Shown one piece after another: positions 21,760 through 24,433 of a DNA stretch of 64,000 nt. The translations under genes and the position numbers were made by a program. The stretch covers positions 8,256,001-8,320,000 of the forward strand of contig CM000151.3 in NCBI GenBank assembly GCA_000004695.1, written 5' to 3'. This DNA comes from Dictyostelium discoideum (lineage: Eukaryota). The stretch's first letter is position 1; each line of letters opens with the position of its first letter. The notes beneath the pieces were generated by a model. That model did not search any database. It was not told where the DNA came from and saw only the letters and a list, made by a program, of their open reading frames with translations.

Positions 21760-24433
21760 ATGAAATTAATTATTTTTATTATTTTTATATATTTATTTAT
21801 TATTCCTATTTTTTCTCAACCAAACCCAAAAAGTATATATTTTCGAAAAAAAATAAAAATAAAAATAAAAATTAATAACTAATAAAAATAATTATTAACT
21901 TTTTTTTAAAATAAATAAATAAAAAATAAATAATTTTTAAAAATATTTAGGTTTTTTAAATACAGATACAACAATTACATTTGAATGGAATTTAAATGAT
22001 AATAATTATTATACAAAATGGATAATTATTAGACCCAATGATGCAAAATTAGAAATGCCATTTAATTGTGTAAAAGGCGAAACATCATTAAAGTGTGTTT
22101 ATACTAATTCCGACTCAACAGTTAATCAATTATATGGTAAAAATGTAACAGCATGTATTAATAGTTTAGGAGGTAATTGTGATACCCCATTAAGTCCACT
22201 TCATTATCCAACACCAATTTTAAAATCACCAATTCCAGAAATACCAGTTGATGGTGGTGAAGTTGTTATAACTGGTTCATTTTTAAAATTTGTAGAATCA
22301 CCAAACTACTATGAAATTGTTGGAACTGAAAATAAAATTACATTTATTGATGATTTAACTAAACAAGAATTCAATCCAACAAATGTAACATTAAGATTCC
22401 CAAGTGGTTGTGGTTTAAATAAATCCCTATTATTACCAAATGACCAAAAAATTCCATTTAATTATAAAAAATCAAATATTACAAGTTCATCATTAATTAG
22501 TGATAATGTTGTTGAATTAATTGGTACAAATTTTTGTAAAGACCAAAGTATCTCATTTGATGGTAAATTAATACCATCAAGTGATGTGAAAATATTAAGT
22601 TCTACTAAATTGCAATTTAATATAGTTCAAGAATATTCATCAACTGGTACACCAATTACTATTGGTGATAGTGAAGTTAAATTGGTATTCCCACCAATTG
22701 TTAATTCATATGATCCATTTTGTGGGTTGGATGGTATTGTTGTAATTCATGGTAAAAGATTAAAATCAAATAATCCAAATTCTGAGATAACTGTTAAAGT
22801 TGAAAATACCAATTGTAACGTTTTAAGCGGTGCTAGTAATACAACCTATTTACAATGCCATATTGAGTCTGGTTATGATAAGAATTTAATTGTTAGAATT
22901 GATAATATTGCAAGTCAACCTATAATGTTTTATTATGAACAACCAATAATTTATAAAACTACAATCGTTGAAAATACTGTAAATATCGATGGTTTTTGTT
23001 TATCGAAAATTAACGATATCCAAGTTGATGGTACTACTAAAAATAATAAAACCAAACCTTTATCAACCTCTGATTCAAAGGTGACTTTTAATTTGGATCC
23101 TCAATACTATGGTGAAACTTTTATTACAATTTCAAATGAAAAATATACTGCCACTACAAATGTTACTGCAAAATTGTTTGCTAAAGTATCAGAAAATCCA
23201 AAAGCTGGTGATAAAGGAATACTACTTGATATTTACTATAATGATCCTCAAGGTACATTAAAATGTAATGATAAATCAAAACTAACAGGAAGTGAAGTTA
23301 AAGACTATACATTTGAAATTAATCCAATTTGTGGTACTATAAATTTAACACTTACTGATGGTACCAATGAATTTACTTTTCAAGCTACTTCAATGCCTGG
23401 ATCAATAGATAAGTGTGAACTTCTCTCAAATGGTGAAACTAGGTGTAATGGTAGTTATCTTGTACCTGATGAATTTACATCACCCGTTGGAACTGTAAAA
23501 TTTGCAGGTAAAAATGTAAAAACAACATTTTTGAATTCAACAATATTCACCTTTACTACATTGGATGATATGTATGCTGGAGATTTATATTTAGATTCAT
23601 GTGTAATTTCCAAAAAAACAGAATATAAATTAGAACCTGTGATTTTATCATATGATGCAAACGGATTTTCAAAAACTGGTGGTGTTGCCAGTTTTACTGG
23701 AAAATATTTTGTATTGAATTCAAATCATATGAAAATTCAAAATTGTGGTAATAATCAAACTAGTCAATGTACTGTAACTTCACATACGATTATAGATTGT
23801 CCAATTTCAATTGATGGTCCAAGAGATAGGACTTGTTATTTAACTAAAGATGATAATTCTTCAATTCTAATTGGTGATCAAAAAGATGGTTCATTTATTA
23901 TTTCATTTGGTGAACCAATACCAATTGCATCGACATCTTTAGGAATAGAAGGTGGATCGTTAATTATCTTTGGTAAAAACTTTTATAATACTACTGATTA
24001 TCCATTACTAGTATCAGTTGGTAATGTAACTTGTAATAATCCAATACTAGTTGATGAATCAAATATTCATTGTACACTTGCACCAAATTCAAATACAAAC
24101 TTATTTGGTACCATTTTCGATAATCTACAAGATGTTAATGTAACATTGGCTGGTAGAAGTGGTGTTGGTAAAATATTTTCTTATTCTAGAAATTTAATCG
24201 CAACAACAACAAATGATAATAGTTTTAATTCAATGTATATAATAACTGCAATTGTTATTTTAATTGGTTTAATTGTTGCTTATCTTCAATTTACTTATTA
24301 TTATAAAAAAAATAGAAAAGATTTTATTTCAAATTATAAAATAATTAGAAAACAATGTAAAAAACAACAACACTATGTTCGTCCACATTTACAAATGACT
24401 GAAAAAAGATCTCAAAGTTTTGCAAATTATTAA
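21760..24433 (+). CDS. IPT/TIG-repeat type I transmembrane glycoprotein, Tgr (tiger)-family-like; exons 21760..21832 and 21951..24433
   Basis: Mini-exon 1 encodes a signal peptide (MKLIIFIIFIYLFIIPIFSQPNPK). Donor A|GTATAT, acceptor TATTTAG|GT (phase 1) joins to ORF 22055..24433. Repeated beta-sandwich modules (..ITGSFL.., ..VIHGKRL.., ..IIFGKNF..). Many N-x-S/T sites. A single C-terminal TM (MYIITAIVILIGLIVAYL) and a short basic tail. Confidence 0.75.

Follow-up and report, generated by a model that had tools for sequence, protein, structure and literature searches.

A singleton Tgr gene with a conserved promoter-proximal G-box and an unrelated ComC-like gene on chromosome 2 of Dictyostelium discoideum

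INTRODUCTION

Two genes lying in one stretch of Dictyostelium discoideum DNA encode modular surface proteins of similar layout, and a 3.2-kb spacer containing several G/T-rich islands lies upstream of the first of them. This locus raises the question of whether both genes belong to one family and one developmental program, with the spacer serving as a single promoter, as a preliminary description of the DNA had proposed. The window considered here, i.e., the whole stretch of DNA that was analyzed, comprises 64 kb of AX4 chromosome 2 (8,256,001 to 8,320,000). In our view, the observations are very probably best explained by a tgrR2 gene with a compact G-box promoter, a spacer of composite nature, and a second gene of the ComC type that is unrelated to the first.

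RESULTS AND DISCUSSION

Identity of the two genes

Both gene models turned out to be correct: the spliced translation of the first gene was identical to XP_642565.1 (851 amino acids [aa]), and that of the second, hereafter gene 2, was identical to XP_642572.1/DDB_G0277603 (909 aa). In Table 2 of PMC6511855, the gene downstream of AGGAGAGTGGGGGTGTGTGTTTGGGTGGGT (Chr2 8277511-8277540) is named tgrR2, DDB_G0277627. Both the sequence and the coordinates of this oligonucleotide, p16, correspond to positions 21511-21540 of the window, and given this match of sequence, coordinates and gene name, the first gene is tgrR2/DDB_G0277627. Identification by means of a table entry ("exonic length 2553") was dropped due to its ambiguous stop-codon convention, and the p16 match was used instead. 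Public annotation and published papers already cover both genes, as well as the designation tgrR2, the expression of this gene in development, and its G-rich promoter element, and little new is therefore added in this respect. Thus, what had been described is real but known, and its interpretation was partly right.

Gene structure and protein product of tgrR2

The gene is organized as follows.

21760..21832, + strand: tgrR2 exon 1 (73 nt), which specifies the signal peptide MKLIIFIIFIYLFIIPIFSQPNPK and contributes the first base of the codon that follows
21833..21950, + strand: tgrR2 intron, GT..AG (118 nt)
21951..24433, + strand: tgrR2 exon 2 (stop codon included), encoding about nine Ig-like modules and then a transmembrane helix and a basic tail (Pfam and AF2)

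The splice preserves the frame and renders the 851-aa protein, and the same signal-peptide mini-exon was found in the tgrR2 orthologues. The layout that had been proposed (signal-peptide mini-exon, short intron, long exon with Ig-like/TIG modules, one transmembrane helix, and basic tail) was confirmed. TgrR2 is a type I membrane glycoprotein with a cleavable signal peptide: its N terminus, encoded by exon 1, is hydrophobic, it carries 15 N-glycosylation sequons, a transmembrane helix is predicted at residues ∼781 to 811, and the 40-aa tail contains 10 K/R versus 2 D/E residues. The transmembrane region and the tail showed almost no variation across seven orthologues.

The proposed search with domain models gave matches above the cutoff for both Ig_TgrO1 (68.1 bits; cutoff, 27.9) and TIG (35.8 bits; cutoff, 20.9) when the full-length protein was scanned against Pfam. 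When the modules were scanned one by one, only two of the approximately nine exceeded the thresholds (74.7 and 27.9 bits), and three more gave matches below them. The secondary structure of the AF2 model was in agreement with an all-beta ectodomain of about nine beta-rich Ig-like modules. The mean pLDDT values of the models of the two proteins were 51 and 52, a low overall confidence, and use of the models was restricted to secondary structure and to the confident residues 160 to 525 of gene 2. In a fold search with TgrR2, the best match was the plexin IPT chain 5l56 (E = 9e-9), a ranking that is weak given the low-confidence model.

TgrR2 as a singleton of the Tgr family

The domain matches and the published name agree with the Tgr-like character attributed to this gene, and TgrR2 is a true, singleton member of the Tgr family, which comprises roughly 63 genes. 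TgrB1 and TgrC1 (LagB1/LagC1), the allorecognition receptor-ligand pair of D. discoideum, belong to this same family and share with TgrR2 a signal peptide, tandem IPT/TIG/E-set Ig-like modules, a single transmembrane helix, and a short tail. Unlike the tgrB1/tgrC1 pair, tgrR2 has no head-to-head tgr partner; its divergent neighbor is an aspartyl-protease gene, and its downstream neighbor encodes RPL7a. Head-to-head pairing, as in tgrB1/tgrC1, is typical of many members of the family but does not define it, and singleton tgr genes are recognized within it.

Homologues of TgrR2 were found only in dictyostelids. A word-indexed homology search with the protein yielded orthologues and no paralogues; the latter were recovered by exhaustive profile search alone, and the matches carry no tgr names. 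The nearest paralogues have the TgrO1-like Ig domain, and the best paralogue cluster is represented by an 874-aa protein that aligned over its full length (E = 1e-112). This cluster probably corresponds to the TgrR1 group. The namesake member of the subfamily, tgrR1 (DDB_G0275745), is, like tgrR2, a singleton tgr gene.

Expression of tgrR2

Developmental regulation of tgrR2, as opposed to constitutive expression, was borne out by published RNA-seq data (Parikh data set; PMC6198379 supplement). Expression values between 0 and 24 h were 0.12, 89, 350, 288, 195, 195, and 161; thus, the gene is silent during growth, is on by 4 h, and reaches its maximum (350) at 8 h. In the same data, the values were 31 for prespore, 72 for prestalk, and 0.007 for vegetative cells, i.e., a mild prestalk enrichment, and expression was near zero in mature spores. 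This pattern differs from that of tgrR1, which is a spore-lineage marker ("ms + p") according to PMC9117722. Direct-RNA reads obtained from strain QS33 at 9 h numbered 56 for tgrR2 versus 55 for tgrB1. Like tgrB1 and tgrC1, tgrR2 comes on at aggregation, and by analogy with their products, TgrR2 would be a receptor for adhesion or recognition between cells from aggregation onward. The onset at 4 h somewhat precedes that of the classic GBF-dependent post-aggregative genes, a point that counts against GBF.

Sequence variation in TgrR2

The TgrR2 ectodomain evolves fast, with dN/dS values of 0.27 to 0.63, versus 0.00 to 0.07 for the larger exon of the neighboring protease gene. When AX4 was compared with another D. 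discoideum lineage, residues ∼490 to 600, which span one or two Ig-like modules, accumulated 22.5 nonsynonymous versus 3.5 synonymous differences, and the remainder of the gene was under purifying selection. There is a small chance that TgrR2 is a further polymorphic recognition receptor. If the 490-to-600 patch were under diversifying selection, a partnerless singleton Tgr protein could aid kin discrimination or could, alternatively, recognize a polymorphic ligand specified by another locus. With such a patch, possibly hypervariable, this little-studied, well-expressed protein would be an allorecognition candidate beyond TgrB1/TgrC1.

The proximal promoter: G-box versus G-quadruplex

Two conserved features were recognized in the proximal promoter of tgrR2.

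21511..21548, + strand: proximal G/T-rich island of the tgrR2 promoter, with p16 at 21511-21540 (PMC6511855; six-genome conservation)
21531..21613, + strand: conserved proximal promoter block, beginning with GTGGGTACACCGTGTTAAATCAAATAATTAAGCTCATTCTTTAGATGGATAATTTTTT (conservation and alignment)

PMC2257962 gives the GBF element as (T/G)G(T/G)G(T/G)G(T/G) and describes lagC (tgrC1) as dependent on GBF. The proximal island contains two adjoining runs of overlapping heptamers of this type (21518-21530 and 21532-21540). In agreement with the G-box-type island described for the tgrR2 proximal promoter, it lies at −213 to −246 in each of six genomes and has an invariant GTGGGT core and two to eight GBF heptamer matches per genome. 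In the conserved block, 40-nt windows were at least 85% identical to their counterparts in D. citrinum and D. dimigraforme. As in GBF-dependent G-box/CAE promoters, such as those of lagC/tgrC1 and the sigN genes, the elements are paired and their surroundings are AT rich. Compared with promoters of the lagC/tgrC1 type, the tgrR2 island, a putative GBF element, has the additional property of forming a G-quadruplex (G4) in vitro. By similarity of sequence, GBF would be the factor acting on the proximal island.

The in vitro behavior of p16 raises the alternative that the island controls tgrR2 by its structure, as a DNA G4, and not as a G-box factor site. Thus, the island was the sole G4Hunter match of at least 1.5 in the 64-kb window (score, 1.72), and it has been reported that p16 folds as a parallel G4 with a Tm of 56°C in 100 mM KCl and that Dictyostelium promoters are enriched in G4 motifs (PMC6511855). 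However, that evidence on p16 concerns in vitro folding, not an effect on expression, and G4 potential was not kept among the six genomes. Maximum G4Hunter scores were 1.72, 1.84, 0.80, 1.40, 1.84, and 0.96, with three of the six below 1.5, namely, those of D. cf. discoideum ACTFIZ (0.80), D. firmibasis (0.96), and D. citrinum (1.40), whose islands have only one or two G-tracts of at least three residues. The GT-rich GBF heptamers and the core were, for their part, retained in all six. We therefore regard control by the G4 as unlikely. From the comparison of these genomes, the p16 element is conserved as a G-box and not as a G4, which bears on how G4 motifs in Dictyostelium promoters are to be interpreted. 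Under the G-box reading, tgrR2 transcription would most likely be driven by a compact promoter of ∼0.5 kb, in which the conserved element would be the GBF-type G-box at approximately −240, joined to the conserved AT-rich block.

Composite nature of the 3.2-kb spacer

The remaining features of the spacer, and the gene on its other side, are listed below.

16981..18558, − strand: aspartyl-protease gene DDB_G0277581, divergent from tgrR2 (Pfam Asp; primer matches)
19108..19663, no strand assigned: conserved distal module (conservation), assigned to the protease gene and not to tgrR2
19723..19780, + strand: further distal G/T islands, GTGAGGGGGGTGGT ... TTGGTGTGGTGTGTGTTTGTGGT, beside a SpaA ChIP-seq peak

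The enrichment of the spacer in G/T islands was confirmed. Positions 18559-21759 contained nine merged KGKGKGK sites, compared with 0.9 ± 0.95 expected (maximum, 5) from 2,000 Markov-1 simulations; in other words, 9 of the 40 sites of the window fell in 5% of its length (P = 1.3e-4). The spacer contained neither a tRNA nor an Rfam family. The G/T islands of the distal module are located at 19138-19158, 19368-19379, 19523-36, and 19595-613; the first had previously been placed at 19156-19177, an interval that is AT rich. A published SpaA ChIP-seq peak, at chr2 8275841 (approximately position 19841 of the window), has been assigned to DDB_G0277581. This gene consists of two large open reading frame segments (16981-17784 and 18070-18558), its product has a hydrophobic C terminus, and the published quantitative PCR primers for G0277581 (PMC5923282 supplement) map to 17337-17356 (−) and 17186-17205 (+).

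In D. firmibasis, the protease gene has been relocated away from tgrR2, and the distal islands have moved along with it. The distances from the islands to the protease ATG were 580, 810, 965, 1169, and 1200 in AX4, versus 587, 781, 956, 1131, and 1179 in D. firmibasis, and the protease upstream regions of the two genomes were collinear, with 72.7% identity over 1,432 columns (787 bits). The upstream region of D. firmibasis tgrR2, for its part, lacks the distal islands. These comparisons were made with island lists, MAFFT, and a stricter blastn, given that a permissive blastn of the intergenic region was flooded by AT-rich low-complexity matches. Since they were relocated together with the protease gene, the distal islands were assigned to it. 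Thus, of the three islands that had been attributed to the tgrR2 promoter, the proximal one (21511-21548) stands, and the two distal ones are linked to the protease gene.

The spacer would accordingly be read as ∼1.4 kb of G-box-rich upstream region belonging to the divergent prestalk aspartyl-protease gene DDB_G0277581, followed by ∼1.3 kb of unconserved sequence and then by the ∼0.5-kb tgrR2 promoter. In AX4, tgrR2 might nevertheless respond to the distal module, because enhancers can serve both genes of a divergent pair. The D. firmibasis rearrangement, which separates a G-box enhancer linked to the protease gene from the compact promoter of tgrR2, offers a guide for the choice of reporter fragments.

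Neighborhood of the two genes

A broader alternative is that all the G/T islands of the spacer form one tgrR2 promoter and that both genes lie in a coregulated cluster of developmental surface-protein genes. The strong enrichment of the spacer, the induction of tgrR2 in development, and the fact that divergent pairs can have enhancers in common speak for it. Nevertheless, we consider it improbable, in view of the collinearity of the distal islands with the protease upstream region in D. firmibasis and of the unconserved sequence that separates the distal and proximal modules. The surroundings point in the same direction: tgrR2 and gene 2 are separated by at least seven unrelated genes, mostly housekeeping, and the genes around and between them encode Vps39, RPL7a, PTH2, a cyclin, an aldose epimerase, RPC4, and a PPR protein, which does not fit the neighborhood of developmental surface genes that had been suggested. 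Nor did any open reading frame of 70 aa or more, when screened for a Cys content of at least 6%, prove a convincing candidate for the Cys-rich ecm-like gene mentioned in the preliminary description. The G-box-rich promoter ascribed to gene 2 was reduced to a single G-box-like site (38546-38556, at −656), which is missing from the upstream regions of D. citrinum and D. firmibasis. Gene 2 thus has no conserved G-box. A composite spacer, with its proximal part serving tgrR2, remains the preferred reading.

Gene 2, a ComC-like gene

The structure of DDB_G0277603 is as follows.

39204..39334, + strand: exon 1, encoding the signal peptide plus ∼20 mature residues (translation match)
39335..39421, + strand: intron, GTAAGT..AG (87 nt)
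39422..42020, + strand: exon 2, encoding an MRH/CIMR-like domain, three EGF-IPT pairs, and DUF7949 (Pfam and AF2), followed by the ComC supersandwich domain, a transmembrane helix, and a 20-aa basic tail

Exon 1 therefore encodes more than the signal peptide to which it had been limited. The interleaving of EGF-like and IPT modules, in turn, was upheld. When scanned singly against TIG, the inter-EGF modules gave 25.9, 15.2, and 27.0 bits (cutoff, 20.9), and a gene 2 orthologue (P0015) gave 35.7 bits. Six-Cys patterns are visible in the protein; as for EGF repeats of the tenascin/teneurin type, EGF_Teneurin scored 17.7 bits against a cutoff of 24.3 and EGF_TEN scored 28.4 bits against a cutoff of 65, both below threshold. 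Above the respective cutoffs were ComC_SSD (57.1 bits; cutoff, 24), the EGF-like DUF7949 module that precedes it (36.2 bits; cutoff, 27), and the N-terminal MRH/CIMR-like domain (23 bits; cutoff, 22.5). The ComC_SSD-DUF7949 pair was found in 13 of 13 gene 2 homologues.

Owing to its MRH and ComC supersandwich domains, gene 2 belongs in the ComC-like family and not in the Tgr family; its product is a ComC-like surface protein unrelated to TgrR2, and the resemblance between the two genes is limited to the type of module (IPT) and their overall organization. The view that it is a divergent Tgr paralogue with acquired EGF modules, favored by its IPT/TIG modules, signal peptide, single transmembrane helix, short basic tail, and 5′ intron, is highly improbable, since neither full-length nor per-module Pfam scans gave an Ig_TgrO1 match, ComC_SSD, DUF7949, and MRH were matched instead, all its relatives have ComC_SSD, and hhalign of the gene 2 and TgrR2 profiles gave a marginal probability of 12.6% over one 77-column IPT module only. 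Short 5′-proximal introns are common among Dictyostelium genes, which also counts against gene 2 as a Tgr gene.

Like ComC and the ComC_SSD family (PF22933), gene 2 has the supersandwich domain, the DUF7949 EGF-like module, EGF repeats, and a transmembrane anchor. It differs from ComC in being shorter (909 aa) and in having an N-terminal MRH/CIMR-like domain and a regular EGF-IPT alternation repeated three times. ComC reportedly acts in the lagC pathway. Literature searches gave no match for comC with lagC or for DDB_G0277603 and the protein accessions.

In the fold search, residues 160 to 525 of the gene 2 model (pLDDT, 65 to 85) matched plexin and Met IPT chains, the best being 5l5g and 5l7n (E = 2e-12 to 6e-11). 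The ectodomains of plexin and Met, in which PSI and IPT domains alternate, were thus the best fold matches for both gene 2 and TgrR2. Gene 2 shares with them the alternation of a small Cys-rich module with IPT domains; unlike in plexin and Met, this module is EGF-like and not PSI, and the sema, kinase, and GAP domains are absent here. The likeness is one of fold and layout and not of family membership.

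Gene models and identity

Both gene models proposed in the preliminary description were correct, in a window whose A+T content is 77-87%.

Gene models
21760-21832 and 21951-24433; gene 1; 118-nt GT..AG intron; spliced open frame of 851 codons
39204-39334 and 39422-42020; gene 2; 87-nt GTAAGT..AG intron; spliced open frame of 909 codons

Both proteins have exact-sequence matches in Dictyostelium discoideum AX4; the observation was thus correct and both genes are already annotated, the product of gene 2 (XP_642572.1/Q8T1W0, DDB_G0277603) as 'MRH domain-containing protein'. A study of G-quadruplexes in D. 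discoideum (PMC6511855) assigns the p16 oligonucleotide, AGGAGAGTGGGGGTGTGTGTTTGGGTGGGT, to the tgrR2 (DDB_G0277627) promoter at Chr2 8277511-8277540, and this sequence is identical to window positions 21511-21540. By this match of sequence and coordinates, gene 1 is tgrR2 and the window corresponds to chr2 8,256,001-8,320,000, in plus orientation.

Overall, the preliminary description was largely correct and what it noticed goes beyond chance, and its interpretation was right for gene 1; it was wrong on the family of gene 2, on the assignment of the distal islands and on the theme of the neighbourhood. Its central points are all in public annotation or papers already, and the finding is therefore not new and of limited interest.

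For the tgrR2 orthologues of D. discoideum ACTFIR (locus L005, 10001-11225) and D. dimigraforme (locus L003, 10001-12082), the deposited models begin with spurious upstream exons, which give them aberrant N-termini. The genuine signal-peptide mini-exon can be seen at 12083 of L003, and the tblastn match to TgrR2 residue 1 starts at 11226 of L005.

Protein families of the two genes

The HMM search agreed with the proposal that gene 1 encodes a Tgr-type IPT/TIG glycoprotein, with Pfam matches to Ig_TgrO1 (68 bits) and TIG (35.8 bits). When TgrR2 was scanned as nine separate segments, module 2 matched Ig_TgrO1 (74.7 bits), module 4 matched TIG (27.9 bits), and three further modules gave sub-threshold Ig-type matches. 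The AF2 model, of low confidence (mean pLDDT 51), is all-beta until a transmembrane helix at 781-811, with plexin IPT chains as its best fold matches. The protein contains 15 N-X-S/T sequons, and its 40-aa tail has 10 K/R versus 2 D/E. Orthologues with 93-55% identity were found in D. discoideum lineages, D. cf. discoideum, D. citrinum, D. dimigraforme and D. firmibasis. An exhaustive profile search with TgrR2 rendered 53 proteins with E below 1e-3, including TgrO1-like proteins and tandem arrays; the ten top proteins were looked up, and all come from dictyostelids (nine Dictyostelium, one Synstelium). According to a 2025 preprint, there are about 63 tgr genes, some of them singletons, whose functions beyond tgrB1 and tgrC1 are almost unknown.

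For its part, DDB_G0277603 is ComC-like, not Tgr: it matched ComC_SSD (57 bits) and DUF7949 (36 bits), and in a profile-profile comparison with TgrR2 a single IPT module aligned, with a probability of 12.6%. The interleaving of EGF and IPT modules that had been described did hold, given that the three inter-EGF segments, scanned alone, matched TIG (25.9, 15.2 and 27.0 bits); teneurin-type EGF models remained sub-threshold. Residues 160-525 of its AF2 model (pLDDT 65-85) matched plexin and Met IPT chains (E = 2e-12), and the N-terminal domain matched CIMR/MRH (23 bits).

Developmental expression of tgrR2

The expression values are those of the Parikh 2010 RNA-seq, as reproduced in the PMC6198379 supplement.

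RNA-seq values for tgrR2 (PMC6198379 supplement)
0 h: 0.12
4 h: 89
8 h: 350
12 h: 288
16 h: 195
20 h: 195
24 h: 161
prespore: 31
prestalk: 72
cup: 1.2
spore: 0.5
stalk: 6
vegetative: 0.007

The rise from 0.12 at 0 h to 350 at 8 h bears out the proposed developmental regulation. After 9 h of development, the wild strain QS33 gave 56 direct-RNA reads for tgrR2, 55 for tgrB1 and 75 for tgrC1. Developmental regulation of tgrR2 is thus already documented.

G/T-rich islands of the spacer

The 3.2-kb spacer (18559-21759) separates tgrR2 from a divergent aspartyl-protease gene.

G/T islands and C/A-rich site of the spacer
19138-19158, +, G/T island (described earlier as 19156-19177, off by about 18 nt)
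19368-79, +, G/T island
19523-36, +, G/T island
19595-613, +, G/T island
19723-36, +, G/T island
19758-80, +, G/T island
21062-84, +, G/T island
21517-40, +, G/T island
21421-31, single C/A-rich site

Sites were counted with the GBF element (T/G)G(T/G)G(T/G)G(T/G) (PMC2257962). The spacer contains 9 merged sites versus 0.9 +/- 0.95 in Markov-1 simulations, and 9/40 of those in the whole window. The enrichment is real, and the islands reported there exceed chance. Another cluster of GBF-type sites, with C/A-rich plus-strand sequences (e.g., CAACACACCCAC, ACCACACCCAACCCAC and CACCCCACACAC), is located at 28793-30317; it surrounds the 5' side of genes lying at 29337-32311, which include a cyclin-like one.

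Assignment of the islands

The minus-strand gene at 16981-18558 encodes an aspartyl protease (Pfam Asp) and matches exactly the published qPCR primers for DDB_G0277581, a prestalk gene with a SpaA ChIP-seq peak 1295 bp upstream, at chr2 8275841 (PMC5923282), which corresponds to about window position 19841. Four other genomes share the divergent arrangement of tgrR2 and the protease gene, with a spacer of about 3 kb; in D. firmibasis the protease gene lies on the opposite side of tgrR2, past RPL7a and PTH2. There (locus L002, 17720-19261; cf. window 16981-18558) the protease gene was relocated together with its 1.4-kb G-box-rich upstream region, and tgrR2 has a cyclin gene on its upstream side.

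The protease upstream region (1.39 kb) is collinear between AX4 and D. firmibasis (72.7% identity, 787 bits), the distal islands lying 580, 810, 965, 1169 and 1200 from the protease ATG in AX4 and 587, 781, 956, 1131 and 1179 in D. firmibasis, where the 12-mer TGTGTTGGGGTT is kept. The AX4 distal region gave only low-complexity matches to the D. firmibasis tgrR2 upstream region. The five-genome alignment fell into three zones: a conserved block at 19108-19663 is followed by unconserved sequence, between about 19950 and 21268, and then by two further conserved blocks (21269-21382 and 21531-21613). The proximal island lies between -213 and -246 relative to the tgrR2 ATG in 6/6 genomes, with an invariant GTGGGT and an adjoining conserved GTGTTAAATCAAATAAT...TTTAGATGGATAATTTTTT block.

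Three islands had been ascribed to the tgrR2 promoter. The third holds its position in six genomes, while the first two move with the protease in D. firmibasis. From this relocation, the collinear alignment, the conservation zones and the fixed proximal position, we conclude that tgrR2 probably owns the third alone, and that the other two would be part of the protease regulatory region, adjoining the SpaA peak.

The proximal island is also the sole G4Hunter match >= 1.5 within the window, and as p16 it folds in vitro as a parallel G4 with a Tm of 56 C (PMC6511855). Across six orthologous promoters, maximum G4Hunter scores vary (1.72, 1.84, 0.80, 1.40, 1.84 and 0.96), whereas 6/6 contain GBF-type heptamers, so conservation would point to a protein-binding G-box, rather than a G4, as its maintained function.

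Gene 2 promoter and neighbouring genes

Gene 2 has a single upstream G-box-like site (38546-38556), with no counterpart in the D. citrinum or D. firmibasis upstream regions. This site overlaps an ATG, after which comes a donor-like GTAAGT (ATGAATTGGGGTGTGTAAGT, 38540-38565), and may belong to a small exon instead of being regulatory.

The proposed neighbourhood of developmental surface genes was not found, since the window also encodes a Stealth-family protein, Vps39, a DUF202 protein, RPL7a, PTH2, a cyclin, an aldose epimerase, RPC4, a PPR protein and a DUF2804 protein. Two Dictyostelium Class I RNA genes lie about 350 nt apart.

RNA genes
34826-34897, +, tRNA-His (GTG)
47967-48009, -, Class I RNA (Rfam RF01414, 43.7 bits)
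48316-48369, -, Class I RNA (Rfam RF01414, 51.8 bits)

At its 3' end the window carries long (CAA)n/(ACA)n triplet repeats (62238-62456 and 63600-63760; about 105 nt and more), presumably homopolymer-coding sequence of a gene that extends past the window.

Evolutionary rates

Divergence from D. citrinum
tgrR2: dN 0.21, dS 0.52, dN/dS 0.41
protease, larger exon: dN 0.02, dS 0.41, dN/dS 0.05
gene 2: dN 0.13, dS 0.44, dN/dS 0.29

Between AX4 and ACTFIR, TgrR2 residues about 490-600 (window 23420-23750) showed 22.5 nonsynonymous and 3.5 synonymous differences (pN/pS 1.87), versus 37.5 and 53.5 in the rest of the gene (pN/pS 0.19; Fisher's exact P = 1e-4, for a region picked after the data were seen). 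Local diversifying selection or gene conversion at residues 490-600 is possible, as a lead rather than a result.
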